This document shows, in pieces, positions 17,579 through 51,298 of a stretch of 64,000 nucleotides of DNA; within the stretch, counting starts at the first letter, position 1; each line of letters starts with the position of its first letter. The notes beneath the pieces were generated by a model. It saw only the letters and a program-made list of their open reading frames with translations, did no database searches and had not been told where the DNA came from. Source of the DNA: Eledone cirrhosa (lineage: Eukaryota); contig OZ024741.1 in NCBI GenBank assembly GCA_964016885.1, forward strand, positions 154,504,001-154,568,000, written 5' to 3'. Made by a program: the position numbers and the translations under genes.

Positions 17579-17606
<28 letters not shown>

Positions 17607-17613
<7 letters not shown>

Positions 17614-17672
17614 ATACTTTGGGAGGGTCATGTTGCCAATAAAGAATCTTGCTAAACAAATTCAGAAACGAT
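17607..17672. mobile_element. 65-bp inverted stub of the Penelope-like family at 43496-50230
   Basis: attgttatactttgggagggtcatgttgccaataa (= ~43557-43592) joined to reverse-complemented agaatcttgctaaacaaattcagaaacga (= ~43501-43529), within (TA)n. Confidence 0.85.
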
Positions 17673-17819
17673 ATATATATCATATACACATAAGGGACCA
17701 CCTCGGTACGCCGAGGTTAACTTTGCCTTTCATCCTTACGGGGTCGATAAAATAAAGTACCAGTAATACACTGGGTAATTGCTGGCCTTGTGCCAAAAGT
17801 AGAAACAATTATGATATGA

Positions 17820-26212: not shown

Positions 26213-28722
26213 CTCTTTACCCTAGATATCAAGTCCCTCTATACTGTCATCCCCCATACTGATGGCCTACGTGCCCTCCTCCGGCACCACCTCGATCTTC
26301 GCCTCTCCCCCATCCCCTCCACTGCACCCTCCTTTGCCCGGCCGAGCTGGTCCTCACCCTCAACTGCTTCTCCTTCTCGGGTGAGTTTTACCAACAGGTC
26401 ACGGGGGTAGCCATGGGCACAAGAATGGGCCCAAACTATGCCAACCTTTTCGTTGGCCATGTTGGGGCCCAAATCTTTTCCCAGTACACCGGCCCCACGC
26501 CCGAACTGTACGGTGGTTACATCGACGACTTTATTCGAGCCACGACCCTCACCCAAGAACAGCTCAACTCCTTTCTCTCCTTCGTCTGCTCCTTCCACCC
26601 CTCCCTCCACTTCACCACCTCTATCTCCACCACCCTCGTCCACTTCTTAGACATCTCCATCACCATCTACCCCTCCCACCGCTCCCTCGTCACCTCCGCC
26701 TTCTTCAACCCACCCCCTCCCACTCCTACCTCGACTTCACCTCCTCCCACCTACACACACAAAACACTCTATTCCCTACTCCCAACTCCTCCGGATCCGC
26801 CGCCTCTGCAGCCGAGATGCTGACTTTGAGTCCCAGGTCCTTCCCTAGTCAGCCATTTCATCCAGCCATTCCTGCTCCAGGCCTCGCTGCCACACCTGCC
26901 CCCATATCACCAACACCACCACCTTCCATGGTCCCAACAGCCACTCCTCTCTGTCCGGCATGCCTTCCGCTGCACCTCCTCCAACCTAGTCTATGGACTT
27001 CGCTGCATGGAGTGCAGCGCAATCTATGTCAGACAGACTGGACGTCGCCTGGTGGACCGTTTCACGGAACACCTCCGGGATATTCGTCTCTGCGGCAGTT
27101 CCCCGATCGCCCGTCACTTTTGCTCCCCTGGACATTCCGCCCACCACCTCACAGTCTGTGGCCTACTCCAATGCCATGGAACACCCACCACCCACCTCAC
27201 GGTCGAACAACGCACCATCTTCACCCTACAGACCCACACACCCCCCGGCTTGAACTCCCCACCCCTATTCCTTTAGCCTTCGACTGCCCACCATTCCCCA
27301 CTAACACCACTAACACACTCCTCCTTTTAACCGTCCCACCCCCTTGGCCCATCCCCCAACTAACAATACTAACATCCCCACCCCTCCCCTAACACGCTCA
27401 CACCCACCTGTACATATATACATGCACTCACACTATCCACACACCCTACTACCACCACTAACCCTCACTCACACATCCACTCTGACCACCCTACAACTAA
27501 CATCACTAACCTCCCCCCGACCCCATTCACACAAACACACACCATCACCCACACACACACCCACACCTATGTACACCACCCACTCCACACACCCAACCAC
27601 TACTAACCCCTACTTACACACTCGCTTTCAACCCTTTCCCCACCACATGCAATACTAACACCTACTAAACCCCCTTTACCACACACACACACTCATCCAA
27701 ACACGCACACACACACCAGTACACTACACTCCCTCCTCCGTCCCCAACACCGTTTCTCTCCCTCTCCCTCTCCCCGCTCCACCACACCCCTTCACACACA
27801 CATCCCACTAACACTTCTACTAATATCCACCCCATCGCCCCACTTCACCACCTTCCCCCTCCACCCTTCACACCTACCCATCCTCTCCCCTGTCCACCGC
27901 ACCTCCGCACACAGACACACACACAGTCCTCACCACACTGACCTTACTCCACCTGTCATCCTCCTCTACTGCTATCTCTTCACCCTGCCTGACCCTCTGA
28001 CCACTTCCTGTTGCGCGTGCACCCCACTTTCCTCCACTTCCGACCACCACCTACATTGGATTCCACACCACCGGTCATCGTTCCAGCCATCCACTCCATA
28101 ACATGAAAAATATCCAACACCTCTTCGCACACTCCACGGAACTACCTCAGGAAGTTACCCACGAACATACACTCACATTTTTTCGCACCACGCCACCTAC
28201 ATCCACACCACGTATAAACACAAACACACACGTGCGTACCCCCCATATACACACTCAGCCTCCGGAATCCACACGCCCCTCCACCACCCCGGACTCCTCT
28301 CCTTCCACACGCACGCACACACCTTTTCCTGAATATGGAACCTCGTTCTTCCCCCAACTCTCACATTCACATACACACGCACGCACACGTACACCTACAC
28401 ACATACACAAACACCACCTTCAGCCTTCCCCACTTTGACCCCTTGCCTCTCTCTCCCAACTCCACCCGCCACCACCCTTACACGCCTCACACCCTTCCAC
28501 CACTTGTTCATTTTATTGTTTATTTTTATTTGTTCTCCTTCCCCCTTTTTTCTAAATGTCTTTCCACCCCTCTACACACCCTCGGAACTCTCTTCCTACC
28601 CAATTTTCTCTTGAAGAAGGGCTTATGCCCGAAACGTCGTTCCCCCCACTCTCAAGAGCGTGAACCTAATAAATCTTTATTTGTCTGACTCTCTGCTTTT
28701 GTTCCCGTTCAAATTTTCACTA
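26213..28722 (+). mobile_element. Penelope-like element family B (Neptune-like), 5'-truncated, long CA-rich 3' UTR
   Basis: LFTLDIKSLYTVIP, GVAMGTRMGPNYANLF, YIDD, CSRPRCHTC linker, LVYGLRC..C..IYV.QTGR.L..RF.EH; flanked by (TA)n. Confidence 0.92.
28611..28638 (+). ncRNA. Minimal hammerhead core in PLE-B 3' UTR
   Basis: TTGAAGA-a-GGGC-ttat-GCCC-GAAA-CG-TC; the sister copy at 36578-36605 has CTGAAGA; no clear stem I. Confidence 0.55.
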
Positions 28723-30946: not shown

Positions 30947-32492
30947 GCTTTCTTTATTAACCACAAGGGTTGACACAAAGTATAACATTAAGGACAACAC
31001 AGGACAATACAAATGGGCATTTCTGCCTGTAAAAAACCCCCAGAGTATGTGACAAAAAAAGGAAACAATGAAAAATTCCCCAATAGGGGGGAGACCTCTG
31101 AGGGTTGCTCATGGAGAAAGCCTACAAGAAAAGCCACAGTTACCCTGACCGCTAGGGCAATGCCCTCTTCCAGTTTTCCTCCTATAATGCTACAGGCACA
31201 TGCTCAGGGTAGACCCATTCACACGGCCCATTCTTGCCTCTCTCACCCACCTCTCAACAAACTGGCTGGAAGTCAGCACTTCCCTCTCCACCCTGGTTTT
31301 CCTTTTCAGGTGAAACCTGAAAAAGTTAATTAGGGCGTCACTGAAGAGGAAAGTACCCGTCTTCAACCCTTTCAGACGTGTCCACCATACAATCTCTTTT
31401 ACCATGGCTACCAGGCAGATAAAACTGCCTGGCTTTCTCGGCTAAAGGAAGGCGGTGAGGCAATTTTGATGATGGACTCAGCTGATAGCTGGATCCGTTC
31501 TACATGTGACAGCAGGCATAAACCCACAAGTCAGCAATGCTCGGACATTGGATGAGTGCATGCAGGATGGTTTCATCGCCCTGCGGGCATCTTGGACAGG
31601 CCTGGCTGACGGCACTTCCATGCCTGTAGAGTTTATCCCGAACTGGCAACGCTCGTCGGTAGCACTGCCAGGGCAGGGATTTCTGGAAGTTGTCCATGGG
31701 CCCCGGCCCGAAAGTTCTCCCGAAGAGATTGGCTAGTTGGTTTTCGTTGACGCCTAGTCTCCCCAAGGACGTTGTTGCTCTTTCCCTCCACTAACCCTCT
31801 ATAGAACGCTAAGGTGGAGTTTCCAGCGATTGTATTGCTCGACTGGTTAAGGGCTGTAAGTGCCTGAAGACATTCCAGTCTCCAAGCACTTCCTCTCAGT
31901 CTTCGCTTGACCCAGGACTGCAGCTCCGCCAAGGAGACAAGCTGGGGAAACATGTGTCTAGCAAACGGCGACCACACCTGATCACCGTTGAGGAAGAGGT
32001 GGAGATGTCGTAGCCTGAGCACATGTCTGCGCATTATCAGCCACGGCATGCCCAGCCCTCTGCGTAGCGGGTGTTGACAGCAGATGGACCGCCTGACCAT
32101 CGGAGCATGTCTCTTCCACAAAAAGCAAAAGAGCAAACGCTCCAGTGCAGTTAGGCAAGGCTTAGGACAAGGCATGACAGTCAGGCAGTAGTAGATGACA
32201 GACGTGATGTACGCATTCGCCACCTCCGCTCGACCTTTCAGGGATAGCTTCCTCTCGGTCCATTTTTGGGTGAGAGAAGCCACCTTGTTCATGACCTCCT
32301 CCCAGTTTTTGTTCGTCTGGAGGTCCGGACCGAACCAGACCCCTAGCAATTTAACCGGTCCGTCCGTCCAGCACCCGACGACGCTGTTGGACGGCATGGA
32401 CCTGCCTCTCCAGGTGCCGAGTTGCAGGCCTACTGATTTTTCCTGGTTGATCATTGCTCCTGTCACTACCTTGTAGTCTCTTAGTGTGGTGC
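30947..32492 (-). mobile_element. L1/Tx1-clade LINE, 3' portion
   Basis: TGAMINQEKS, KLLGVWFG, WTERKLSLKGRA, GLGMP, CPRC-x7-HALIQC knuckle; (AAT)n at both ends. Confidence 0.88.
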
Positions 32493-32505
32493 CAATAATA
32501 ATAAT

Positions 32506-34860
32506 GGTGGAAGAAATGACTGAATGGTCAAATCAAGGAATTGAGAAAAGACATTGGAAAGCTTGAGTCTTTACTGAATGGGACATTACAAAACATAGAC
32601 ACTAAAGATAGAGTGAAAATAAAATACAAAACTAGGGGAAAAGAGCTAAATGTTATCATAGAGGAACTAAAGCAACACATTGTAGCAAAAAGTGAAAAGA
32701 TTAGGCAGTATGAGAACAGTTAGTCAGTATAGACAGAACTGCATGTTTGACAACAACTAGAAGATGTTGTTTGAACAGCTTGAAGGGAAAGAAAGAGGTA
32801 ACGACGTGATCCCTGAGGCTGAACAGACTAAGACATTCTGGAGAGGAATATGGGAGCAGAATGTTGAACATAATAGTCAGGCAGTGTGGATTGAGACAGT
32901 TCAAAAGGAGATTAGTGAACAGGCACACCAGCAACCTGATTTGAGTATCACAGTTGAAACTCTTAAGGGGCAGGACAAAAAACTAACCAACTGGAAATTA
33001 CCAGGCCCAGATGGTGTGCAAGGGTATTGGATAAAAAATATAACATCCCTCTACCCAAAACTGACAGCCATGTTCAATGACTGCTTGATGTCGAGTGAGG
33101 TACCAGAGTGGTTGACAAAAGGTACCACAGTTCTGATAATGAAAGACCGAATCAAGGATAATGAGGTTACCAACTATAGGCCTATCACATGTCTGTCGTC
33201 CGTAATATGGAAACTGTTAACAAGCATTGTGTCTGAGGAAATCTACTATCACCTCCACATAAACAACTTGTTACCGGACGAACAGAAAGGATACCGAAGG
33301 AAGTCCCGTGGTACAAAAGACCAGTTACTTATTGATAAGATGGTAATGAGGAATTGCAAGAGGAGGCATACTGGACTTGCCATGGGATGGATAGATTACA
33401 AAAAGGCATTCGACATGGTATTTCATTCTTGGATAACCAAAAGCCTAGAGATCTTCAAGGTGGCAGACAACATCAGACAGCTATTAAGTAAAAGTATGAA
33501 GTTCTGGGAAACAGAGCTAACATCAGGTGGAGAATCCTTGGGAGGCGTGAAGATCAAGAGAGGTATCTTCCATGGAGATAGTTTGTCCTCTTTGTTGTTT
33601 GTCTTTACCCTGATACCCCTATCCGTCATATTGTGAAAAGTGAGAGCAGGATACAAGCTGGGAAGAGGAGAGCTTACAATCAACCACTTCCTCTTCATGG
33701 ACGATCTTAAACTCTTTGGAAAGAGTGAGAAGGAGTTGGGTGTACTTGTTGACACTGTCCGTATTTTCAGCAATGATATATGTATGCAATTTGGTATTAG
33801 TAAGTGTGAAGTCCTTGTGATGAAGAGGGGTAAATTGAGCAGAAGCAACAGAATCCAGGTACCAACAGGTGAGATGATAAAGTAAATTGATACTGAAGAG
33901 GGATACAAATATTTAGGTGTTCTGGAGGCAGATGACATCAAGAACAAAAAAAAAAGGAAGGAATTGATAAGATCTGAATACATAAGGAGAGTAAGGAACA
34001 TACTAAAATCACATCTAATTAGTAGGAATGTCATAAGTGCAGTAAATTCCCGAGCTGTGTCTATTATTAGGTACAGTGTGGGAATTCTGAAATGGAATGT
34101 TGCTGAACAAAAAGAAATGGATAGGAAGACTATGAAGCTAATGACTATCTACAACATGTTCCACAAGAGGAGTGATGTCGATAGACTCTACTTAAAGAGA
34201 TCTGAAGGTGGAAGAGGTCTTATCAGCATAGAGGACTGTGTTCAGATGGATAAAAACAGTGGCTGACAGTAGGGAGCCAATGCTCAAAATTGTACTGAAG
34301 GAGAAGACAATAGACCAGGGGATATCCAAAGAAGAAATAACAACAAGGAGGAAGAGCAACCTTCATGAAAAATCCTTTCATAGCACCTTCTTTAAAAAAA
34401 CGGAATTCAGAGATCGACAGACATGGAACTGGTTAAAAAGAGGAGACCTTAAAAAAGCTACAGAAACAATGCTAATGGCTGCGCCAGAGCAAGCTCACAG
34501 AACGAAGTGGGTGAAACACCATATTTACAAGGAGGAGGCTTGCTCACTGTGTAGGATCTGTGGAGAGAGAGAGAGGAGACTGTGGCTCACATTGTATCCG
34601 AGTGTAAACACCTAGCCCAGACTCACTATAAAGGCTGGAGGCATGATATGATAGGCAGGGTGATTCACTGGCATCTATGCAAACTAAACAATTTACCACA
34701 TTCTGAGAAGTGGTATGAGCATAAGCCAGAGCTGGAGTTAGAAAATGATCAAGTGGAGGTGCTATGGGATTTTAGGATACAGACGGACAAGAAATTAGGA
34801 CACAATAGGCCTGACCTGGTGGTGTTTGACAAGGAAAAAAGATCATGCCTGCTCATTTGA
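32506..34860 (+). mobile_element. R4/Dong-like RLE non-LTR retrotransposon, disabled
   Basis: NWKLPGPDGVQGYWIK, NYRPITCL, WIDYKKAFDMV, RGIFHGDSLS, FMDDLK, CRIC..HIVSEC, RHD, WDF.IQTD..HNRPD; stops and frameshifts. Confidence 0.93.
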
Positions 34861-36495: not shown

Positions 36496-39400
36496 GTGCA
36501 AATTTGGACGGGAACAAAATAGAGAGGCAGACAAATAAAGGTTTATTAGGTTCACGCTCTTGAGAGTGAGGGGTGTGGACGTTCCGGGCATAAGCCCTTC
36601 TTCAGGAAGAAATAGGTTAGGAAGAGAGTTCCAAGGGTGTGTGGGGGAGGGGTGGAAATACATTTAGAAAAAGGGGGGAAGGAGAACAAATAAAAATAAA
36701 AATAAACGTAAAAATAAACATAAGAATAAACAATAAAATGAACAAGTGGTGGAAGGATGTGAGGCGTGTAAGGGTGGTGGCAGGTGGAGTTGGGAGAGGG
36801 AGGCTGGGGGTCGAAGCGGGGAAGGCTGAAGGTGGTGTTTGTGTAGGTGTACGTGTGTGTGTGTCTGCGTGTGTATGTGAATGTGAGAGTTGGAGGAAGA
36901 ACGAGGTTCCATGTTCAGGAAAAGGTGTGTGCGTGCGGTGGGGTGTAAGTTGATGCGTGCGTGCGTGTGGAAGGAGAGGGGTCAGGAGGGGGCGTGTGGA
37001 TTCCGGAGGTTGAGTGTGTATATGTGGGGGTACGCACATGTGTCTTTGTGTTGATACGTGGTGTGGATGTAGGTGGCGTGGTGCGAAAAAAAATGTGAGT
37101 GTATGTTTGTGGGTAACTTCCTGAGGTAGTTCCGTGGAGTGTGCGAAGAGGTGTTGGATATTTTTCATGTTATGGAGTGGATGGCTGGAACGATGACCGG
37201 TGGTGTAGAATCCAATGTAGGTGGTGGTCGGAAGTGGAGGGAAGTGGGGTGCACGCGCAACAGGAAGTGGTCAGAGGGTCAGGCAGGGTGAAGAGATAGC
37301 AGTAGAGGAGGGTGACAGGTGGAGTAAGGTCAGTGTGGTGAGGACTGTGTGTGTGTGTCTGTGTGTGCGGAGGTGCGGTGGACAGGGGAGAGGATGGGTA
37401 GGTGTGAAGAGTGGAGAGGGAAGGTGGTGAAGTGGGGCGATGGGGTGTATATTAGTAGAGTTGTTAGTGGGATGTGTGTGTGTGTGAAGGGGTGTAGGTG
37501 GAGCAGGGAGAGAGAGGGAGAGAGAGAGAGAGGGAGAGGGAGAGAAGAAATGTTGGGGACGGAGGAGGGAGTGTAGTGTACTGGTGTGTGTGTGCGTGTT
37601 TGGATGAGTGTGTGTGTGGTAAAGGGGGTTTAGTAGGTGTTAGTATTACATGTGGTGGGGAAAGGTTGGAAAGCGGGTGTGTAAGTAGGGGTTAGTAGTG
37701 GCTGGGTGTGTGTAGTGGGTGGTGTACATAGATGTGGGTGATGGTGTGTGTTTGTGTGCGTGGGGTCGGGGGGAGGTTAGTGATGTTAGTTGTGGGGTGG
37801 TCAGAGTGGATGTGTGGGTGAGGGTTAGTGGTGGTGGTAGTAGGGTGTGTGGATAGTGTGAGTGCGTGTATATATATTCAGGTGGGTGTGTGCGTGTTAG
37901 GGGGAGGTGTGGGGATGTTAGTATTGTTAGTTGGGGGAGGGTCGAGGAGTGGGTGGGGCTGTTAGTATTGTTAATTGTGGGATGGGCCAAGGGGGAGTGT
38001 GTTAGAGGTGTTAGTGGGGAATGTGTGGACGGAAGGGTGGACGGTCGAAGGCTAAAGGAATAGGGGTGGGGAGTTCAGGCTGGGGGTGTGTGGGTCTGGA
38101 GGGTGAAGATGGTGCGTTGTTCGACCGTGAGGCGGGTGGCGGGTGTTCCGTGGCATTGGAGTAGGCCACAGACTGTGAGGTAGTGGGCGTAATGTCCAGG
38201 GGAGTGAAAGTGGCGGGCGATCAGTGAACTCCCGCCGAGGCGAATATTCCGGAGGTGTTCCGTGAAACGGTCCACCAGGCGATGTCCAGTCTGTCTGACA
38301 TAGATTGCGCTGCACTCCGTGCAGCGAAGTCCATAGACTAGGTTGGAGGAGGTGCAGCGGAAGGCATGCCGGACAGAGAGAGAGTGGCTGTTGGGACCAT
38401 GGAAGGTGGTGGTGTTGGTGATGTGGGGGCAGGTGTGGCAACGAGGCCTGGAGCAGGGAAGGGAACTGGGGGGAGAAAGAAGAGCGTGGATTGGGGGTAG
38501 GGAGCTGTAGACGAGGAGGGTGCGGAGATTGCGTGCGCGTTTGAAGGAGGGGAGGAGTGGGGATGGGAAGATGGGGGAAGTTGAGGGGTCGGACTGGAGG
38601 CGTCGGAAGAGGCAGAGGATGGTACGGTGGACAGGTAGTGTGGAGGGGTGGTAGGTGATGGGGAAGGGGAGATGGTGGGTGGGTGTGCGGTGGCGTGGGG
38701 TGAGGACGGTGAAGCGGTGGACAGCACGGGCGCGAGTGAGGGCGGTGTGGACGAGAGGGGGGGGGGGTAACCCCATCGGATGAAATGGCTGACTAGGGAA
38801 AGGGCTTGGGACTCAAAGTCAGCATCTTGGCTGCAGAGGCGGCGGATCCGTAGGAGTTGGGAATAGAGTGTGTGTAGGGTGGGAGGAGGTGAAGTTGAGG
38901 TAGGAGTGGGAGGAGGTGGGTTGAAGAAAGCGGAGGTGGTGGGAGGGGTCGATGGCGATGGAGATGTCTAAAAAGTGGACGTGGGTGGCGGAGATAGAGG
39001 TGGTGAAGTGGAGGGAGGGGTGGAAGGAGCAGAAGAAGGAGAGAAAGTTGAGCTGTTCTCGGGTGAGGGTCGTGGCTCCGATGCAGTCGTCGATGTAACG
39101 ACCGTACAGTTCGGGCATGGGGCCGGTGTACTGGGCAAAGATTTGGGCCTCACCATGGCCAACGAAAAGGTTGACATAGTTTGCGCCCATTCTTGTGCCC
39201 ATGGCTACCCCCGTGACCTGTTGGTAAAACTCACCCGAGAAGGAGAAGCAGTTGAGGGTGAGGACGAGCTAGGCGAGGCGAAGGAGGGTGGGGGTGGGGC
39301 GAAGGTCGAGGTAGTGCCGAAGAGCATGTAGGCCGTCGGCGTGGAGGATGACAGTATAGAGGGACTGGATATCTAGGGTGAAGAGGAGGGGATGTGGGCT

Positions 39401-40187
39401 GGGTGGGAAAGTGAAGGAGTCGAACAGGCGAAGGGCGTGGTTGGTGTCGGAGATGTGAGAGCGAAGGGTGGTGACGAGGGGGACGAGGATGGAGTCAAGA
39501 AAGGCGGAGCTGAGTTCGGTGGGGCAGTTGCAAGCAGAGATGATGGGGCGCCGGGGTTGTCGGGTTTGTGAAGTTTGGGGAGGAAGTAGATAGTAGGGGT
39601 GCGGGGGTGCAGACGATGAGGTGGGAAGCGGTGGGAAGGAGGAGGGAGGAGGAGACAAGGTGTTGGATGGTGGAGGAAACTTGTTGTTGGTAGACGGGTG
39701 TGGGGTCAGAGGGTAGAGGGCGGTAGAAGAGGGGGTCACGGAGGGCTTCAGCCGTGTAGAGGTCGGCGCGCCACACCACCACAGCGCCTCCCCTGTCCGC
39801 CGGTTTGATGACGATGTCATCTCGGCTACGGAGGGAGCGGAGAGCGAGGAGTTCGGCCCCGTGAGATGTTATTCCATTTGGAATAGTGGCGGAAGCGATT
39901 TACTGCGCTACGGCAGGCATCAACGAACGTGTCCAGGGTGCTAAATTGCCCTGGTACCGGCGTCCAAGACGATGGTCGTCGGCCCAGAGACAGAAATGGG
40001 TTTGGGGAGTTCGGAGCCAGTGGTGTTAGATGGAAATGTGCCTGTAGTTTCGTGCGTCGCACGAATCGTTCGACTTCCATTCGGGTGCGGAACTTGTCGC
40101 TATGCGGAGTGTGCGGTATGAAGCGAAGGCCTCTACTGAGGAGTTACCGCTCAGGGACGGAGAGGGGGAGCTCAGGGGGTATGGTGA
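36496..40187 (-). mobile_element. Penelope-like element family B, near full length, frameshifted
   Basis: IKPADRGGAVVVW, RPIISACNCPTE, FTLDIQSLYT, MGTRM, RYIDD, CSRPRCHTC, GIY-YIG-like domain; inverted relative to 26213-28722; minimal HHR core at 36578-36605. Confidence 0.93.
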
Positions 40188-40469: not shown

Positions 40470-41345
40470 ATTAGTTTAAAGCTTGAAATAGCAGGAAAAG
40501 AATCATAACGTTTTAAACACTAGTCCTTCATCAGAAGATAGAGTTAGAAATAAAAGATAAAATAGAAAGATATAGTGGTGCAAGCATAAACACTTAAGCT
40601 ACAAAGTATAAAGTCAGTACATGCATATGGCCATAGAGCCAGGAAGTGGCAGGAGTGGAGTAAATGTTAGGAAATATTCAACACTGATGGTGCCATGGCC
40701 ATTGCACTGAGTGTCATAGAAACACAGGCATGTGCACAAGAGATGCAATCACACATGGACTCTCAAATGGGATCCCTGGAATGTGTGTGTCAGTGGTGTG
40801 TGCGGTCATGTACACATACGCATGTATGTATCAGAAAGTGTAGGATTTTGATGGTTCTGTGTGTGCAGAGGTTGATGTGTGTTGGCTGGTATATACAGAT
40901 GTTGTAAATGTGGGTGTGTATTGGGTGGTCGCTGGAGTTGTGTGTGTGTATGTGAGTGAGAGCAAAGATAAAGGGAGGTTATAGGAACTGTGGGGGGGAT
41001 GGGGAATTGTGTCTATTCAGAAAATGAAGTTCTGCTCAGTCCTGGTGTGAGTGACTGTGGATCTGTGGTGAAAATGAGGCCTGAGACAGTGAGATGTCAA
41101 GTAGAGTGGCTGGAGGAACAGAAGTGATGAGGGACAGAAGTGTCTTTACCTAATCGTATGTCCCCCAGGTGTCCAGCAAATCAATCCACCAGATGGTGGC
41201 CCATTTGTCCAATATAAATGGTCTTGCAAAGGGAACATCGGAGGACATAGATGATATTGGTGGAGGTGAAAGTGAAGGAATGGCGAATGCAAAAAGAATG
41301 GTTTGTACCTATGAGGATGGTGAGGTTTGTTATGTAGGGACAGGT
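40470..41345 (-). mobile_element. Degraded Penelope-like endonuclease fragment and 3' UTR
   Basis: Minus reads YIGQMGHHLVD*FAGHLGDIRLG near 41145-41215; UTR ends in the HHR at 40504-40537. Confidence 0.6.
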
Positions 41346-42242: not shown

Positions 42243-42429
42243 ATAATTGTTTCTACTTCTGGCACAAGGCCAGCAATTATCCCAGTGTATTACTGGTACT
42301 TTATTTTATCGACTCCGTAAGGATGAAAGGCAAAGTTAACCTCGGCAGGATTTGAACTCAGACCATAAAGGGCCGTAACTCTTTGCTGCAGAGCATGGCG
42401 TCCGACCCTCTACCGATACTGCCAATCCA
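42243..42429 (-). mobile_element. SINE family A, full length
   Basis: Reverse complement of 35894-36079. Confidence 0.9.
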
Positions 42430-42501: not shown

Positions 42502-43403
42502 TCTATAAAGCTTAATCTATAAAGCTCAGTGTGCGGTCATGCTCCTTCGTTATAGAAATCTACGATATAGAATTTCTTCAATTGAAATTTACAATTCAGT
42601 AGTCGAAATAGCTTCGATTGCGTCTTGACGCAGATAATTTTTTCAATTTCACCCACAATTACGCAAAAAATAGATAAAACTCAATATTTTACGATTTTTC
42701 TCTCTCATTTAAACTGCTGAACTCTTTCTACTACCATTCAAAATCTATACAACTTCATACTTTCTGCTACTTTCTCTTTCCAAGCTTGATGGTGATACTG
42801 TCCGTTCACATCGCTCCCTACTGTCTTAAATTTAGAAAACACATATCCTCTATGAGGTTACTAAACCTGCTAGAAACAGCAGCTAACTCTCCCCCTATCA
42901 CCCCCCCCTACTGTCTTAAATTTAGAAAACATATCTTCTATGAGGTCACTAAATCTGCTAGAAACAGCAGCTAACTCTCCCCCATATCACACCACTCCCT
43001 ACTGTCTTAAATTTAGAAAACACATATCCTCTATGAGGTCACTAAACCTGCTAGAAACAACAGCTAACTCTCCCTCATATCACAACCCTCCCTACTGTCT
43101 TAAATTTAGAAAACACACAGACAACCATGCAGAACAACTCCATCGCAGCTCTGTTGTTCGGCTGGCATCGTCTACGCGCGTGTTGCGCAAGTACTGTGAA
43201 ACAATAAATTTCAACACTTTTTTGCACAGAGATAATATCCATAGGCGAAACTACAATTGTCACTGCTGGCGCAGCTCATGCTTCCAGGTCTGCAATTCAT
43301 TCACCCAGTGCCCGGCAGACAAAAAAGTGCTGCCATAAAATGGGTGGTGCAACCTAACTTTGGTAACTTAATGACCCCGAGCAACGCCGGGCTTTAATGC
43401 TAG
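42502..43403 (+). mobile_element. Non-autonomous Helitron with internal ~91-bp tandem repeats
   Basis: 5' A|TCTATAAAG; 3' hairpin cccgagcaacgccggg (43376-43391), then CTAG|T; ~3.3 units at 42814-43116. Confidence 0.8.
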
Positions 43404-43720
43404 TAATGTATAACAGGGAGAATGAGGTACACATTTTAGAGCTAGCCTAGAACACTAAATACTCAAAAGCCACCCTTGAATATATATATATATATATATT
43501 TCGTTTCTGAATTTGTTTAGCAAGATTCTTTATCTGAAATCGTGTGTTGAAACCGATATTGTTATACTTTGGGAGGGTCATGTTGCCAATAAGAAACACA
43601 CGCACCAGTTGTTTCATTTCAATTTATTATATATTTATAAATTTATAAATTTACAAATCTACAAACTTATAAATTTCTGGTTGGTTGGTTGGTTCCACAA
43701 CCAGATAGTTGTTTATATAT

Positions 43721-43765
43721 AGTCATAGTCCTTTCGTCACACACTCTGTGACCTCTTCAGTGACT
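43721..43765 (-). ncRNA. Minimal type I hammerhead ribozyme in PLE terminal repeat (copy 1)
   Basis: Minus: AGTCA-CTGAAGA-g-GTCAC-agagtgt-GTGAC-GAAA-GGAC-TA-TGACT. Confidence 0.88.
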
Positions 43766-43997
43766 GGGGATTCCTTTCTTTGTTTCTGTGCCTTTCCTTT
43801 CTTCTATCCTACGCCATTTTGTTTCTGTGTGTGTGTTGTGTGCTCAGTTTGCGCATGCGCCACATCCGGGTGTCTGTGTGTGTTTGTGTTCATTTATCTA
43901 TTTGTTTATTTATTTATTTATTTATTGTTGGTTGGTTGTTTGTTCTATGTGTGTGTGTGTGTTTTCATTTTGTCCTGTGTGTGTTTTCATTTTGTCC

Positions 43998-46900
43998 TTA
44001 ATTGTAAGTTGTGATGTTGCTGTTCCACTCATATTTTCTATTTAATTTTGGTTGTAATTCTTTTATGCTTACTGCCTCTGTAATTTGCCTAAACATTGCA
44101 TCTTTTCTGTGTGTGGATTCTATTTTTATTTCTATGTTCTCTAATCTACCCATGTGTTCTATCTTAGCATGTTGGTAGAGCACAGATGATTCTTTATTAT
44201 CTTGAAGGTCTCGCCAGTGTTCATTTATTCGTTCCCCTATACTACGAGCTGTCTCACCTATGTACACTATATTTTTGTTTCTACATTGTCCTTCAGTACA
44301 TCTTATGCTATACACTACATTTCTAGTTTTACAGTTAATATGGGGGCTTATTTTACAGGTTATACATTTCTTATCTATACATGAGGGTCTTTGGAACGGG
44401 TATGTCTTGCTAATAAGTGTTTTTACGGAGGTACCTGGTCTTTCTACTATCTTAATATTGAGTTTATGTTTATTTAGGGCCCTTCTAAATTTGTAGGCTA
44501 GTTCGCCTCTAGGGGTTGTATTGATGAACATTACACTCTGGTATTTATTGCTATCATACCATGAGTTTATTCTATTGGCCTTGTTCCTAGTTCTTTCTAT
44601 TCTATTCCAAAATTTGCTCCTATACAAGGGGCAGGTCCCATTTATGTCATTATTTACCATTTTTTCCCATTTGGTTCTGGCTCCTTTATACACTCTGATT
44701 CTATCTCTCTGATTGTAGCCAGAGAACTGCATACGGTGGATGAAGTGTTGTATGTGTCTCTCTAGTTCTTCGGGGTTGCACATGCGGGACACATTTCTCA
44801 TCACCCGTACCAAATCCGCAATCAGTATGTTGATTTTGGTATGGTCCGAAATGGCCGAGTTTCGGTGGATCAGATGTTTGGAAGTCATGGGTTTGGCATA
44901 ATGGGAATGGAGGATTTGTTTTTGGTTGTTAATGGTATCTAACCAGAGCTCTGTGTCTAGTACAGGTAATCGATGGTTGGGGTGTCTACTTGGGTAGTCT
45001 ATAGTAACTCTAATACTCTGGTGGATGGAGTTTGCTATTTGCTGGATGCTTTCCATTGTGTTTTTCTCTAGTTCCTGACTGTTCTTTAGTGGGGGTGTCT
45101 TAACTACGATGTTTATATCATCTACGTAGTGGGAGTACATTACCAGGGTTAAGCTGTCTTCTAATTGTTCTTTAAGTTTTTGTTTAAGTCTACTGTCCCA
45201 CCATACCATGAATAAGTTAGCTATGTCGCCTGCAATGCTAACACCAATGGCTGCTCCTTCCTCTTGGGCATATGTTTTACCATTAAATTTGAACATATGT
45301 TCCTTAAGGGTTAATTTTATGCTGGCCCCCACCGCATGTGCAATCATTTTCTTTAGTTCATCGTGGTTTTCGGGTGTCCGTATGGCTCTGGTCCACCCGT
45401 TCCATCTATCTGTGTGGGTTTTCTTGGCCATTGAGGTAATGGTAGGTGGTCTGCCTCTTGCTGGTCTTGTAGGGCACAGGTTGCTAAGGTCATAAGTGTC
45501 TAGGTAACTATTACTATGGGTAAGCTTAAGTAGAAGTCCCAGCTCACTGGTATCAATCCCACGGAATTCAACATTGCTCTCGCTGATCATTTCTACGCAT
45601 TTCTCCACAGCAAAATCCACGTCAATAGATGGATACAGGGACACAACATCCATACTGCCTATTATGCAGTTTGTTAGGTCCCCAGATCGGTTACCCGCGC
45701 CGATTCTGCTGAGGAGGTCCTCCGTGCTGTCACATACATCTGGGGACATCTCAATGATGGGGCGTATGATCAGGGAGAGGAAGTAGGACAGTCTGTAGTT
45801 ACTAGCAATGTTAGGTCCACAGACTGGCCGTGTTGGTGGTCCCGCGACAGGGTCCCAGCCCGTTTTATGGTCTTTTCGAAGCCCATACAACGCCGGCACG
45901 TCATTGTTCCAGGCCTGGAAGTTGTTGGCAGTCCTTTTGTTGGGCTGCATTATATTCGTCCACATCACCATATGGGCATTGAGGGCTTTTTCTCTATCCT
46001 CATGCTCCTGTGGTGTTACCTCTCTTGTGTTAGTGATGTGGGGTTGCATTGCCTGGATGTAGTTTGGCAGGCTGTCAACCGACATTCTGCCAGACTTGTC
46101 TGTTGGAAAGCATGCTATCTCTCCATTACGCGAGCGCTGCATGAGCTTACGCAAGCCATTTGCAGATTTTTCTCCCAGTTGCTGGGCCTCTATTCTATTA
46201 TGCTTCTTGCTATACTGTTCTATAATATTTCTAAGTTCGGATTTAGCTATACTAAATTGTGCTTCTGTTTGTTCATCGACCTGCGACGGCAACTGCGTGC
46301 GTTTGTTAAATGGTAAAGTCGTGGCGTGGACTCGTCGCAGGTCGAATGATTTATCGGAGGGATTATAAAACGGAGAGTTCCAGGCTGCTGCTTTATGTGT
46401 ACTAGTGCTATTGTTATTGTTAGTTGTGTTGTTTCTATTTCTATTTCCACCAACAGCCTCATGGTTGTTTCTATATCTCTCATAATTACTCCTGTCTCTT
46501 TCCACTTGCTCAATGTTGTTATCTACCCTATTTTGTGTGTCTGTGTGTTCGTCTTGGTTATTCTCTTTATCCTTAGTCTCCCATCTCCTTTTCCTTTTAA
46601 TCCCATTACTTTCCCTTATTTCTGTGCTACTGTCATTACTTGTTTTCTGTGTCTGTGTGTTTGTTAAGATTGTGGTGGTGGTGAGAGGCATTGAATGCGT
46701 GTGTGTTGTTGTTGTTGATGTGTGCTGTTGTTGATGTGTGTTGTTGTTGTCTCCGTGTGTGTTATCGTTGTTGTGTGTGTTGTTATTGTTGTATCTGGGT
46801 ATGTTGCTATTGTTGTTGTTGATGTGTGTGTTGTTGTTATTGTTGTTTGTGTCTGTGTGTCTGTTGTTGTTGGGATGTGTGTTGTATATGTGTGTGCGTA

Positions 46901-47672
46901 TATTGTTGCTTTTGTTTTTGATGCTCCAGCGTAGTTTTGTAAATGATTTTTCTATTTCTGACAGACAACTAATCATATTTACCTTCTTGAATGTCGCAAA
47001 TTTGGGCGGCAGACATAACACAGACATTTCATTATTATCTATTTCTGTGTTCCCATAAATGTTGGTATTTTTGTTGTTGAACTCTTCTGATAATGAGGTG
47101 TCGGCCATGTTGATACCGTCAATTTTGTCGGGATATCTATTGGTATACTCTATAGTATCCTGATTTAGCTTTGCCTGTTTAAGCCACTTTAGTTTCCTGT
47201 TAAAGTGCTTATCACATTCTTGAGTAATGTACTGTTCTTCGGGGTGTATAAGGCTTATAAATATTAGTTTTTCTGTTGGTGTGGTGATTTTAGCTATTTC
47301 TTGTATTAGGTTACGCTTTTGTTTTTCTTGATGACTTAATTCTCTATAGATCTTTTTTATGTTTAGAATTAAAGTTCGTTTTAGCCTATCTGCTTGTTTT
47401 TTGGTGAGTTGTAATCTTCTAACGTCGGTATTGATGGTGTTGGTGTAGATTCTAGAAGTGGTGCACAGCTTTATGAAGTGTAGTTGTCGAGATGTTACGG
47501 TTTTTCGTAGACAACAGAACATGGTGGTTTTCAGTATCTTGTTAGCCTGGCTAAGGCTTACGATATTTCGTTTCTGAATTTGTTTAGCAAGATTCTTTAT
47601 CTGAAATCGTGTGTTGAAACCGATATTGTTATACTTTGAGAGGGTCATGTTGCCAATAAGAAACACACGCAC
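43998..47672 (-). CDS. Penelope-like RT + GIY-YIG endonuclease polyprotein (1224 codons; first ATG at ~47649)
   Basis: PTDKSG, YGLRKDHK, RPVCG, GSMDVVSLYPSI, GAAIG, YVDD, CIDKKCITC linker, VVY..C..C..YIGET.R....R..EH; uninterrupted. Confidence 0.95.
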   Translation of the reverse strand: MRVFLIGNMTLSKYNNIGFNTRFQIKNLAKQIQKRNIVSLSQANKILKTTMFCCLRKTVTSRQLHFIKLCTTSRIYTNTINTDVRRLQLTKKQADRLKRTLILNIKKIYRELSHQEKQKRNLIQEIAKITTPTEKLIFISLIHPEEQYITQECDKHFNRKLKWLKQAKLNQDTIEYTNRYPDKIDGINMADTSLSEEFNNKNTNIYGNTEIDNNEMSVLCLPPKFATFKKVNMISCLSEIEKSFTKLRWSIKNKSNNIRTHIYNTHPNNNRHTDTNNNNNNTHINNNNSNIPRYNNNNTHNNDNTHGDNNNTHQQQHTSTTTTHTHSMPLTTTTILTNTQTQKTSNDSSTEIRESNGIKRKRRWETKDKENNQDEHTDTQNRVDNNIEQVERDRSNYERYRNNHEAVGGNRNRNNTTNNNNSTSTHKAAAWNSPFYNPSDKSFDLRRVHATTLPFNKRTQLPSQVDEQTEAQFSIAKSELRNIIEQYSKKHNRIEAQQLGEKSANGLRKLMQRSRNGEIACFPTDKSGRMSVDSLPNYIQAMQPHITNTREVTPQEHEDREKALNAHMVMWTNIMQPNKRTANNFQAWNNDVPALYGLRKDHKTGWDPVAGPPTRPVCGPNIASNYRLSYFLSLIIRPIIEMSPDVCDSTEDLLSRIGAGNRSGDLTNCIIGSMDVVSLYPSIDVDFAVEKCVEMISESNVEFRGIDTSELGLLLKLTHSNSYLDTYDLSNLCPTRPARGRPPTITSMAKKTHTDRWNGWTRAIRTPENHDELKKMIAHAVGASIKLTLKEHMFKFNGKTYAQEEGAAIGVSIAGDIANLFMVWWDSRLKQKLKEQLEDSLTLVMYSHYVDDINIVVKTPPLKNSQELEKNTMESIQQIANSIHQSIRVTIDYPSRHPNHRLPVLDTELWLDTINNQKQILHSHYAKPMTSKHLIHRNSAISDHTKINILIADLVRVMRNVSRMCNPEELERHIQHFIHRMQFSGYNQRDRIRVYKGARTKWEKMVNNDINGTCPLYRSKFWNRIERTRNKANRINSWYDSNKYQSVMFINTTPRGELAYKFRRALNKHKLNIKIVERPGTSVKTLISKTYPFQRPSCIDKKCITCKISPHINCKTRNVVYSIRCTEGQCRNKNIVYIGETARSIGERINEHWRDLQDNKESSVLYQHAKIEHMGRLENIEIKIESTHRKDAMFRQITEAVSIKELQPKLNRKYEWNSNITTYN

Positions 47673-47788
47673 CAGTTGCTTTCACTTCAATTTATTATAT
47701 ATTTATAAATTTATAAATTTACAAATCTACAAACTTATAAATTTCTGGTTGGTTGGTTGGTTCCACAACCAGATAGTTGTTTATATAT

Positions 47789-47833
47789 AGTCATAGTCCT
47801 TTCGTCACACACTCTGTGACCTCTTCAGTGACT
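47789..47833 (-). ncRNA. Minimal type I hammerhead ribozyme (copy 2)
   Basis: Identical to 43721-43765, offset 4068. Confidence 0.88.
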
Positions 47834-48065
47834 GGGGATTCCTTTCTTTGTTTCTGTGCCTTTCCTTTCTTCTATCCTACGCCATTTTGTTTCTGTGTGT
47901 GTGTTGTGTGCTCAGTTTGCGCATGCGCCACATCCGGGTGTCTGTGTGTGTTTGTGTTCATTTATCTATTTGTTTATTTATTTATTTATTTATTGTTGGT
48001 TGGTTGTTTGTTCTATGTGTGTGTGTGTGTTTTCATTTTGTCCTGTGTGTGTTTTCATTTTGTCC

Positions 48066-49600
48066 TTAATTGTAAGTTGTGATGTTGCTGTTCCGCTCAT
48101 ATTTTCTATTTAATTTTGGCTGTAATTCTTTTATGCTTACTGCCTCTGTAATTTCCCTAAACATTGCATCTTTTCTGTGTGTGGATTCTATTTTTATTTC
48201 TATGTTCTCTAATCTACCCCTGTGTTCTATCTTAGCATGTTGGTAGAGCACAGATGATTCTTTATTATCTTGAAGGTCTCGCCAGTGTTCATTTATTCGT
48301 TCCCCTATACTACGAGCTGTCTCACCTATGTACACTATATTTTTGTTTCTACATTGTCCTTCAATACATCTTATGCTATACACTACATTTCTAGTTTTAC
48401 AGTTAATATGGGGGCTTATTTTACAGGTTATACATTTCTTATCTATACATGAGGGTCTTTGGAACGGGTATGTCTTGCTAATAAGTGTTTTTACGGAGGT
48501 ACCTGGTCTTTCTACTATCTTAATATTGAGTTTATGTTTATTTAGGGCCCTTCTAAATTTGTAGGCTAGTTCGCCTCTAGGGGTTGTATTGATGAACATT
48601 ACACTCTGGTATATCATACCATGAGTTTATTCTATTGGCCTTGTTCCTAGTTCTTTCTATTCTATTCCAAAATTTTCTCCTATACAAGGGGCAGGTCCCA
48701 TTTATGTCATTATTTACCATTTTTTCTCATTTGGTTCTGGCTCCTTTATACACTCTGATTCTATCTCTCTGATTGTAGCCAGAGAACTGCATACGGTGGA
48801 TGAAGTGTTGTATGTGTCTCTCTAGTTCTTCGGGGTTGCACATGCGGGACACATTTCTCATCACCCGTACCAAATCCGCAATCAGTATGTTGATTTTGGT
48901 ATGGTCCGAAATGGCCGAGTTTCGGTGGATCAGATGTTTGGAAGTCATGGGTTTGGCATAATGGGAATGGAGGATTTGTTTTTGGTTGTTAATGGTATCT
49001 AACTAGAGCTCTGTGTCTAGTACAGGTAATCGATGGTTGGGGTGTCTACTTGGGTAGTTTATAGTAACTCTAATGCTCTGGTGGATGGAGTTTGCTATTT
49101 GCTGGATGCTTTCCATTGTGTTTTTCTCTAGTTCCTGACTGTTCTTTAGTGGGGGTGTCTTAACTACGATGTTTATATCATCTACGTAGCGGGAGTACAT
49201 TATCAGGGTTAAGCTGTCTTCTAATTGTTCTTTAAGTTTTTGTTTAAGTCTACTGTCCCGCCATACCATGAATAAGCTAGCTATGTCGCCTGCAATGCTA
49301 ACACCAATGGCTGCTCCTTCCTCTTGGGCATATGTTTTACCATTAAATTTGAACATATGTTCCTTAAGGGTTAATTTTATGCTGGCCCCTACCGCATGTG
49401 CAATCATTTTCTTCAGTTCATCATGGTTTTCGGGTGTCCGTATGGCTCTGGTCCACCCGTTCCATCTATCTGTGTGGGTTTTCTTGGCCATTGAGGTAAT
49501 GGTAGGTGGTCTGCCTCTTGCTGGTCTTGTAGGGCACAGGTTTCTAAGGTCATAAGTGTCTAGGTAACTATTACTATGGGTAAGCTTAAGTAGAAGTCCC
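48066..49600 (-). pseudogene. 5'-truncated tandem copy of the PLE ORF
   Basis: Copy of 43998-45540 with an 8-bp deletion at ~48611 and Trp-to-stop changes at ~48727 and ~49003. Confidence 0.93.
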
Positions 49601-49920
49601 ACCAACACGGCCAGTCTGTGGAGCTAACATTGCTAGTAACTACAGACTGTCCTACTTCCTCTCCCTGATCATACGCCCCATCATTGAGATGTCCCCAGAT
49701 GTATGTGACAGCACGGAGGACCTCCTCAGCAGAATCGGCGCGGGTAACCGATCTGGGGACCTAACAAACTGCATAATAGGCAGTATGGATGTTGTGTCCC
49801 TGTATCCATCTATTGACGTGGATTTTGCTGTGGAGAAATGCGTAGAAATGATCAGCGAGAGAAGGTTGAGTTCCGTGGGATTGATACCAGTGAGCTGGGA
49901 CTTCTACTTAAGCTTACCCA
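49601..49920 (+). pseudogene. Inverted internal PLE RT segment
   Basis: Reverse complement of ~45518-45836 (PTRPVCG...GSMDVVSLYPSID). Confidence 0.93.
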
Positions 49921-50019
49921 CAAACTATGTGCGCAAACTGAGCACACAACACACACACAGAAACAAAATGGCGTAGGATAGAAGAAAGGAAAGGCACAGA
50001 AACAAAGAAAGGAATCCCC

Positions 50020-50064
50020 AGTCACTGAAGAGGTCACAGAGTGTGTGACGAAAGGACTATGACT
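50020..50064 (+). ncRNA. Minimal type I hammerhead ribozyme (copy 3, inverted repeat)
   Basis: agtcactgaagaggtcacagagtgtgtgacgaaaggactatgact. Confidence 0.88.
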
Positions 50065-50602
50065 ATATATAAACAACTATCTGGTTGTGGAACCAACCAA
50101 CCAACCAGAAATTTATAAGTTTGTAGATTTGTAAATTTATAAATTTATAAATATATAATAAATTGAAGTGAAAGCAACTGGTGCGTGTGTTTCTTATTGG
50201 CAACATGACCCTCCCAAAGTATAACAATATATATATATATATAGTTATGCATAACTAATAAGCTCTGTAACCTACATAGTGCACTCTTTTTTCCTGGACC
50301 GTTCCGACGGAATTACTTCATTTACACCTATATATATATATATATATATATTAACTTTTACAAGTATTTCAAAGTATTTCAAGAAAAAGATCCAAATATT
50401 TCATTTTGTTTTGTAAGATTCTTGTGTGAAATTGTGTGTTGAAAAAGATACTACCATACTTTGGGAGGATAATATTACCAGTCACACACACTAGTTGAAT
50501 TTCACTTCAGTTTTTCTCACAAGAGAAAATTAAATGGAGTAACTGAAGCCAAGTGGAAATGAGGAGAAAAAAAGGCCAATAAATAATAAACACGGGATTT
50601 AA

Positions 50603-50817
50603 CCCTTTAGCATTACTCTATATTTACTATTATATTTTCATGGTAAAGGCTTTACCTCACATAATTATCTCATATAATATCAAATCTATGAGATTTTGAT
50701 GTTATTTATTTTGAGAACAATACCTTAATATTGGTATGATCGGCTGATTATGGCTGGTTTGAACAGAAAGAGATGAGAGAATTCTAGCCAGATACGGCTG
50801 GTTTAAATGCTTAAGAT
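50603..50817 (-). mobile_element. piggyBac-type MITE
   Basis: TTAA on both sides; ccctttagcatt terminus; reverse complement of 16428-16648. Confidence 0.8.
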
Positions 50818-51109
50818 TTAATGAAAGAGAAAAGTTTTAGCTAATTTGAAAGTATTATTGAAAATAATATTGTATCTGTTATACTTTGGAAGGGCCAATT
50901 GAGTTTCATTGAGGTCACCAAATGTATCATGAGATTTGACAATTAAATAATTTGTTAGGTACATTAATCGATAAATGGATTAGTTACCTGAATAATAATA
51001 AAAACAACCCCAAAAACTCAATTGGCCCTCTCAAAGTATAACAGATAGAATATTATTTTCAATAACACTTTCAAATTAATCAAAACTTTTCTTTCATTAA
51101 ATCCTGTGT

Positions 51110-51298
51110 GTGGATTGGCAGAATCGGTAGACAGTCGGACGCCATGCTTTGACGCATAGAGTTACGTCCCTTGCCATTCTGAGTTCAAATCCCGCCAAGG
51201 TTAACTTTGCCTTTCATCCTCACGGGGTCGATAAAATAAAGTACCAGTAATGCACTGGGATAATTGCTGGCCTTGTGCCAAAAGTAGAAACAATTATT
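51110..51298 (+). mobile_element. SINE family A, full length
   Basis: Matches 35894-36079. Confidence 0.9.

Follow-up and report, generated by a model that had tools for sequence, protein, structure and literature searches.

Introduction

Typical insertions of Penelope-like elements (PLEs) comprise two direct pseudo-long terminal repeats (pLTRs), an inverted pLTR and a tail (PMC3846280; PMC8557442; here and throughout, comparisons with published systems extend to the accessible parts of the cited sources). Hammerhead ribozymes of PLEs have been linked to a model in which reverse transcription proceeds on a circular template (Cervera and de la Pena, 2014; PMC4209133). In PAc of Anolis, the element protein nicks and extends both DNA strands, with initiation at a pair of internal RNA positions that delimit the tail (Frangieh et al., PMC11167929). 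Targeting of (TA)n has been described for the Neptune, Naiad and Hydra clades (PMC8557442), and a July 2026 preprint still counts eight PLE clades (10.64898/2026.07.22.740005). Here we describe a PLE in a 64,000-nt stretch of the Eledone cirrhosa assembly GCA_964016885.1 (contig OZ024741.1, positions 154,504,001 to 154,568,000). This stretch is referred to as the window and all coordinates are positions within it; the element region spans ~43480-50243, with its open reading frame (ORF) on the - strand.

The locus is a real PLE, one member of the canonical nuclease-bearing order. A single ORF encodes a reverse transcriptase (RT) of telomerase-like type followed by a GIY-YIG endonuclease (EN) with CCHH and R/H/E/N residues. 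The element is a partial tandem whose pLTRs run into the ORF, with the optional inverted copy and tail, and its pLTRs contain descriptor matches to type I minimal hammerheads, sense to the ORF, that are predicted to self-cleave. This tandem-plus-inverted layout and the hammerhead motifs are ordinary for PLEs and already published (Arkhipova, 2013; Cervera, 2014). What an earlier note had flagged from the letters of this stretch, namely a tandem PLE with hammerheads, TA repeats and a circular template, is thus published biology. The remaining interest lies in a wide and perhaps unnamed lineage of PLEs whose long fingers insertion is conserved, and in a two-site rule for the element ends.

We read the locus as one insertion of a PLE with a C-terminal EN, likely related to Nematis. 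Target priming probably took place on the two strands of a (TA)n tract, and the insertion has since decayed at ~0.5% per copy. We give this reading a probability of roughly 0.68.

Anatomy and ends of the insertion

Self-comparison of the window resolved, from left to right, an (AT)n tract, unit 1, unit 2, an inverted internal piece, a 9-nt filler, an inverted pLTR and a second (AT)n tract (Table 1). The two units are offset by 4068 nt at the hammerheads, which agrees with the 4068-bp period given in the earlier note, and the (TA)n reported on both flanks is likewise present. Since the right part is inverted, both outer ends are 3' ends of the element. The terminal repeat had been described as running ~150 nt into the ORF; we find 86 nt on the left and 26 nt on the right. 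The "complete insertion footprint" claimed for the locus holds in the sense that both ends are defined and in no further sense, because no target-site duplication is readable inside (TA)n. The inverted RT fragment is joined to unit 2 through a 3-nt microhomology and has a 25-nt overlap with the unit 2 break point, and the filler presumably reflects a templated jump.

Table 1. Coordinates, in the 64,000-nt window, of the PLE, its parts and a mini-insertion of the same family.
Feature	Position	Strand	Remarks
Left (AT)n target tract	43480..43499	.	Last 4 nt (ATAT) common to element end
Unit 1	43496..47562	-	One full element period; 3' end = ORF nt 86 ("tail" end)
Hammerhead A	43721..43765	-	Predicted cut after 43726; begins 233 nt past stop codon
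Open ORF	43998..47648	-	1216 aa from ATG
Linker and GIY-YIG endonuclease	44040..44381	-	Residues 1098-1211; CX4CxxC linker, 7-residue spacer, CCHH and R/H/E/N
Telomerase-like RT with thumb	44673..46103	-	AlphaFold model; TDKS, KDHK, RPVC, GSxDVxxLYPS, QxxGxxIG, YVDD
Conserved insertion between RT motifs A and B	45366..45578	-	Residues 699-769; ~70 residues
In-frame N/T-rich low-complexity insert	46383..46907	-	175 residues (256-430), among them 46 N and 30 T
Unit 2	47563..49601	-	5'-truncated second copy; equals 43496-45541, 98.6% identical; gives upstream pLTR
Hammerhead B	47789..47833	-	Predicted cut after 47794, 146 nt upstream of ATG
Inverted internal RT fragment	49599..49920	+	Equals 45839 to 45517
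Filler	49921..49929	+	9 nt; first 6 nt = hexamer repeated from adjoining pLTR
Inverted pLTR	49930..50230	+	Equals 47923 to 47623; 3' end = ORF nt 26, 60 nt short of other end
Hammerhead C, in inverted pLTR	50020..50064	+	Predicted cut after 50059
Right (AT)n target tract	50227..50243	.	First 4 nt common to element end
Mini-insertion of same family in (TA)n	17606..17676	.	Separate; ~70 bp

Within the ORF's first 300 nt, ATAT occurs only at the two termini, and the longer motif AATATCG occurs just twice in the whole 3651-nt ORF, again at these two positions. At each terminus the ATAT merges with the (AT)n flank. The mini-insertion elsewhere in the window consists of the element's two ends placed head to head with an overlap of 4 nt at the join, the first corresponding to ORF nt 26 and the second stopping ~4 nt short of nt 86. 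Beside the insertion, an older pLTR/ORF-start remnant of a related family (50396-50513, 75% identical) also loses homology at nt 86. That both ends stop at AATATCG suggests priming by a 4-nt microhomology to (TA)n.

From these features we infer the following course of insertion. The RT-GIY-YIG protein of the element would nick both strands of (TA)n. At the start of the ORF RNA lie two AAUAU|CG sites separated by 60 nt; each nicked 3' end would pair with one of them over 4 nt and prime cDNA synthesis there. The first cDNA would be 6.1 kb long and contain the tail, one full 4068-nt unit and 2 kb of the next. The second would extend for 301 nt, jump to a position at most 25 nt from where the first had stopped and copy 322 nt further upstream, and its joining to the first through the 3-nt microhomology would give the inverted right part. 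The template would be an RNA longer than one unit, either an uncut multimer, which we slightly prefer, or a religated circle. Twin priming of L1 has a geometry similar to this two-cDNA layout. Among PLEs, the Penelope/Poseidon elements of Adineta vaga (PMC3846280) and PAc (PMC11167929) also have direct and inverted pLTRs, a pLTR running into the ORF, a tail, N-rich in-frame inserts and two internal RT start sites; they differ in having no cysteine linker and a tail of 30-40 nt, against 60 nt here.

Reading frame and protein

The frame at 43998-47681 (- strand) is open from stop to stop over 1227 codons and encodes an RT followed by GIY-YIG, as had been noted. Its first ATG, at 47648, gives the 1216-aa protein and aligns with the start Met of full-length relatives; residues are numbered as in P0001, which starts 8 codons before this ATG, at 47672. 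The RT was modelled by AlphaFold with a predicted local distance difference test score (pLDDT) of 93 from an alignment of 121 sequences. Its best structural match is TERT (Foldseek E 3.3e-9; VIA Z 16.9, root-mean-square deviation (rmsd) 3.6, 271 aligned). The EN residues conserved in alignment A1 are Y1121, C1114/C1125, Y1137-G1139, R1148, H1152, H1168/H1173, E1199 and N1211. The N/T-rich insert is missing or short in relatives of the protein; N-rich in-frame inserts have been described for Adineta Penelopes (PMC3846280).

Sequence searches with the full protein matched no Pfam family, while PF01541 was matched on some of its relatives, and a search of PDB sequences returned one chance match only. 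Among the matches listed, the nearest named protein is a hypothetical protein of Octopus vulgaris (69% identical), a match that points to an octopod as the likely host; the other matches among the 120 listed, nearly all of them unnamed, are 32-51% identical.

Hammerheads and the template

The three identical hammerheads of the earlier note were recovered: our descriptor for type I minimal hammerheads matched just these three places in the window, which are identical over the 81 nt compared (control: one match in 30 windows shuffled in two-base blocks). That the third lies in the inverted pLTR, on the + strand, had gone unmentioned. Hammerhead A is composed of a 5-bp stem I, CUGAAGA, an unpaired G, a 6-bp stem II with a 5-nt loop, GAAA, GGAC and UA. 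Cleavage had been placed at 47789 and 43721, freeing a 4068-nt unit. The unit length stands, whereas those two positions are the 3' ends of the hammerhead motif and the predicted cleavage nucleotide H17 falls 5 nt away, at 47794 and 43726. Rfam gave no matches at the gathering score.

Both cDNAs crossed the hammerhead cut sites, so the template would have been continuous there, either uncut or religated. In the circular version, which the earlier note had proposed, the hammerheads would cut out the 4068-nt unit, the unit would be ligated and the RT would travel 1.5 turns round the circle. This model is possible and already published; taken alone, it leaves the inverted right third unaccounted for. 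The hammerhead spacing equals the period, but any tandem would show this equality, and it is therefore not diagnostic. Cutting at the hammerheads would leave a linear monomer with both start sites close to its 5' end, at only ~170 and ~230 nt, and a long cDNA therefore calls for either a circle or a multimer that stayed uncut. The uniform, neutral divergence of ~1% among segments (see below) suits a single template followed by ageing, although polarizable changes lean to unit 2 (11 vs 4, p 0.12; 8 vs 4, p 0.39, when ORF-breaking changes are left out), a lean that is not significant in either count; both counts predate the assignment of A620P to unit 1.

Among 75 related metagenome loci, 27 include the nuclease end followed by 250 nt or more of sequence, and in 9 of these a sense hammerhead core lies 138-220 nt downstream of the EN, against 3% of shuffles. 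The strict descriptor matched 1 of the 18 related loci with at least 400 nt downstream, and a U3/A8-type variant was seen in 4 of the 18 loci among the 27 that lack the core, a count that has no control and includes one weak case. Minimal PLE hammerheads show low cleavage in vitro, and as dimers only (Cervera and de la Pena, 2014; PMC4209133). In PAc, the one reconstituted PLE, cleavage was dispensable in vitro, hammerhead mutants inserted normally, and none of the RNA-seq reads had its end at the site (PMC11167929). The circle and the uncut multimer are not distinguishable at this locus; we regard the circle as conceivable without being the probable route, and slightly prefer the multimer.

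A less likely explanation is that the structure is composite, with unit 2 or the inverted part added later through self-insertion, unequal recombination or break repair. The protein of PAc nicks its own ORF-pLTR junction (PMC11167929), the junctions described above have repair-like microhomology and templated filler, and all three ORF-breaking changes lie in unit 2. However, the inverted fragment starts at most 25 nt from the unit 2 break point and continues upstream from it, which would be rare for two independent events; all segments are equally diverged; and the two-ended inverted form is seen again at 17606-17676. We therefore consider a composite origin unlikely. It is highly improbable that the tandem is an assembly artefact since, although complex PLE insertions are hard to assemble (PMC8557442), the junctions are typical of PLEs and the two units are told apart by 2 indels and 20 substitutions, some of which are CpG transitions.

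Potential promoter sequences were observed on either side of the hammerhead. Upstream of it, the pLTR (47905-47932, - strand) contains a 10-bp palindrome, GCGCATGCGC, adjoining CCGGATGT, which we take to be NRF1- and ETS-like sites; the inverted pLTR breaks within the GCGCATGCGC palindrome. Directly downstream of it, at 47779-47788 (- strand), is the TATA-like TATATATAAA. The transcript would include or lack the 5' hammerhead depending on whether the GCGCATGCGC/CCGGATGT region or TATATATAAA drives transcription.

Divergence and decay

Units 1 and 2 show 22 differences (20 substitutions, 2 indels) over 2046 bp. Between the inverted piece and unit 1 there are 4 in 323 bp (3 substitutions, 1 indel), and the inverted pLTR has 1-3 differences in 300. 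All duplicated segments are therefore ~1% apart, or ~0.5% per copy. Of the 18 substitutions within the ORF, 5 are synonymous and 13 nonsynonymous, which fits neutrality (p 0.39 unweighted; 1.0 transition-weighted). Two nonsense changes interrupt unit 2, which also has a deletion of 8 bp. Unit 1 carries R848H in the RYVDD motif, a CpG change at a position that is R in 113/120 relatives and in unit 2, and A620P, where P is found in 0/120 relatives and the inverted piece has A. Both look like derived changes of the unit 1 copy.

With unit 2 broken and unit 1 altered in RYVDD, the element does not deserve the description "coding-intact". "Young" applies loosely, at ~0.5% per copy; the identity of the three 45-nt hammerhead motifs adds little to it, being expected 48% of the time at that divergence. 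Judged from these changes, the copy is recent in evolutionary terms and slowly decaying, but probably no longer functional. If the host is taken as an octopus, a calibration in which a distance of 0.09 corresponds to 25 million years (PMC13282606) roughly suggests an insertion age of one to two million years.

Clade placement

The earlier note had likened the motifs of the element to the Naiad clade. By the published definition (Craig et al., 2021; PMC8557442), the GIY-YIG of Naiads is N-terminal, their motifs include CxC and DKA, and canonical hammerheads are absent. In our protein the only YxGET is at residue 1137, after the RT, and the only CxxC is at 1103; no CxC is present between EN and RT or anywhere else in the protein. 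The EN follows the RT in 107 of the 115 family proteins with motif C, and the other 8 are without the EN motif. DKS is found here and in 103/121 family proteins, DKA in none, and the element has three minimal hammerheads. Motifs A and B are unlike the Naiad rows of Fig S1 of PMC8557442, and TDKSG and RKDHK have 0 occurrences in the accessible part of its supplement. The likenesses are a (TA)n target, CX2-5CxxC with CCHH fingers, tandem and inverted insertions with a tail, and a lengthened region between RT3(A) and RT4(B), with an insertion of ~70 residues here against ~20 in Naiads (~20-40 across Naiad/Chlamys); Naiads do exist in Octopus (PMC8557442). Under the published definition the domain order refutes a Naiad identity, which we consider extremely unlikely.

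By eye, the linker and EN resemble those of Nematis rather than Neptune. Like Nematis_Cr, Nematis_C4, Nematis_Pp and PNL2_SM, the protein has an RT followed by GIY-YIG with CCHH, and a CX2-5CxxC linker, which takes the form CX3-5CxxC in 108/113 family proteins with the EN motif. The spacer from CxxC to the first CCHH cysteine is ~7 residues in those Nematis rows, mostly long in Neptune and Naiad, and exactly 7 in 83/108 family proteins (range 5-11); the use of this spacer as a Nematis-type trait is our own reading of Figs S2 and S7 of PMC8557442, not a stated definition. A stretch before the linker resembling "I[VI]E[KR]PG", a short insertion past HK of RT motif 1 and a partial tandem with pLTRs (PMC8557442) are also shared with Nematis. 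The third Nematis trait, the absence of an insertion in the fingers domain (IFD), with ~60 residues from motif A to motif B, does not apply, the distance here being 128. As far as its sequence goes, the element has two Nematis features and lacks one. It further differs in DKS, against DK[GR] by eye in Nematis, and in a longer ORF (~1050-1200 aa).

Other known clades fit less well. The Hydra clade shares the C-terminal EN, hammerheads, (TA)n and DK[TS], and has CxCX5C, YRDD, GSYDG, no CCHH, no insertion and an ORF below 3 kb (Craig et al., 2021); membership is ruled out by the CCHH and CX4CxxC of the element. A cysteine linker between RT and EN likewise excludes Penelope/Poseidon. Neptune was rejected on DKS rather than DKG, the short spacer and the split in an RT tree, in which 25 family rows were separated from 3 Neptune-like rows by a long branch with a Shimodaira-Hasegawa-like approximate likelihood ratio test support of 100. 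These three rows, labelled by their motifs, were the only outgroups of this quick tree, so that placement among clades stays by motif and layout. Searches for reference PLEs returned none with the EN region (other clades), the Naiad motif or a Neptune-like query, and a Nematis motif search in viral contigs returned one phage tape-measure-like gene only.

Several observations weigh against our reading of a recent, two-strand-primed, Nematis-related insertion. By eye, KDHK, LYPS, GG[AP]IG and YVDD here correspond to KTHK, LYTN, GLAMG and YIDD in Nematis, and KDHK and YPS of motif A are common to the element and Hydra. The hammerhead folds no better than its shuffles (z -0.97), as is expected of a minimal hammerhead thought to act as a dimer (PMC4209133). 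At the observed rate, an ORF of this length is expected to remain open only ~9% of the time; unit 2 may therefore have been damaged before insertion, and the choice of the locus for its open ORF also accounts for the figure. Together, the surviving ORF and the lean of changes to unit 2 hint weakly at a pre-damaged donor. With regard to the ends, the older remnant (alignment ~50396-50470) has no TA tract at its nt-86 end, and the RT start site of PAc is described as not homologous to the cut DNA (PMC11167929), whereas here both ends share ATAT with the target. The proposed microhomology priming therefore draws on three ends from two insertions and on one older copy. For (TA)n targeting and the PLE tail, the two identical AATAT|CG ends would supply a rule that is simple and testable, unlike the non-homologous priming of PAc.

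The fingers insertion and a wider lineage

The conserved insertion between RT motifs A and B has near-invariant positions at E710, L713, C733, R736, G740, P743, R756 and W760, with E710, LGL[Y] and C733-P-x-R736 as its motifs. Measured between the aspartate of motif A and the glutamine of motif B, the distance is 126-135 residues in the 113 of 121 proteins in which both motifs could be parsed. A profile search recovered 2788 representatives with E values of 1e-30 or lower, and the best 150 of them were inspected. In 149 further proteins, mostly 50%-identity representatives, the distance was 117-159 in 71 and the remainder were unparsed; one of the 71, the two-stretch protein P0158, has its first nuclease motif before the RT. 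Metagenome loci in which both motifs were parsed gave 125-135. By hand count in Fig S1 of PMC8557442, the same distance is ~60 in Penelope/Nematis rows, 84 in Naiad-1_Skow and ~115 in human TERT.

Within the RT model the insertion folds confidently. Modelled alone, as 121 residues, it has a pLDDT of 86; its best fold match is an unrelated chain (Z 3.8, rmsd 5.2, 77 aligned), with no fold match at Z of at least 5 and no Foldseek match at E 0.001. These null results with the isolated model demonstrate neither a new fold nor an unlikeness to the IFD of TERT. Because the insertion alone matches nothing, we name it an insertion at the IFD position and not a TERT IFD. It resembles the TERT IFD in its position between motifs A and B and in its similar length, whereas the isolated model gave no structural match to TERT or to anything else; on these models, an origin independent of the TERT IFD would be likely.

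Canonical PLEs with a C-terminal nuclease lack the fingers insertion, which among nuclease-bearing PLEs marks the N-terminal group (PMC8557442). The RT described here belongs to a wide, possibly undescribed lineage that combines a long A-B insertion with a C-terminal nuclease. We found no published description of it in a search that fell short of most subscription literature, Arkhipova 2006 and Repbase, and GGPIG, GGAIG and ELGLYL have 0 occurrences in the PMC8557442 supplement before Figs S9-S10. Set against its novelty, sporadic IFD-like regions have already been noted in some Coprina (PMC8557442), which makes the finding only moderately surprising, and two Adineta families carry a short insert at the same place, that of Pen3/Pen5a being a Cys-rich insert between RT motifs 3 and 4 (PMC3846280). 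A stronger proposal, to which we tentatively assign a little less than even odds, is an undescribed major PLE clade, mostly of aquatic animals, sister to either Nematis or Hydra, with a C-terminal GIY-YIG nuclease, hammerheads in its pLTRs, a conserved fingers insertion of telomerase length, and priming of the two (TA)n strands through 4-nt pairing at its two AAUAU sites. If true, a family pairing a C-terminal nuclease with a fingers insertion would add a clade to the PLE classification and bear on how often such insertions arose among telomerase relatives.

A GTDB scan matched one 2.7-kb contig of a metagenome-assembled genome (MAG), and locus L077 and protein P0109 are family members on short bacterial MAG contigs (Desulfobulbaceae, Candidatus Brocadiaceae); contamination is likely, of eukaryotic origin in the latter cases. 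Direct terminal repeats or permuted ORFs, as expected from tandem units, are present in related loci L002 (1-936, 5118-6053), L003 (1-99, 3411-3509) and L028, and the terminal repeat of L002 contains a ~105-bp internal array.

Other features of the window

Two broken Neptune-like PLEs are located at 26263-27392 (+) and 38052-40143 (-), so that the window contains at least two PLE lineages. They have a long linker spacer and DKG-type relatives (P0122-P0124), three proteins having been returned with a Neptune-like fragment of the window as query. Weak profile matches to the family RT and EN (iE 1e-5 to 0.1) at 581-1106 and 41094-41264 may be further PLE remnants. Close to the insertion, an inverted repeat at 50815-51103 has 79-nt arms (91%) that resemble the element's ORF start; it is likely an old mini-element with two ends, derived from a related family. 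A ~90-bp unit occurs in three tandem copies directly left of the insertion (42806-43117). The region is bracketed by a 187-nt inverted pair (42243-42429 and 51111-51297; 90% alike), probably two SINE-like copies. From their motifs, we take fragments at 5888-6418, 11953-13302, 31633-32532 and 32761-33636 to be a Tc1/mariner-like transposase and LINE-like RTs.

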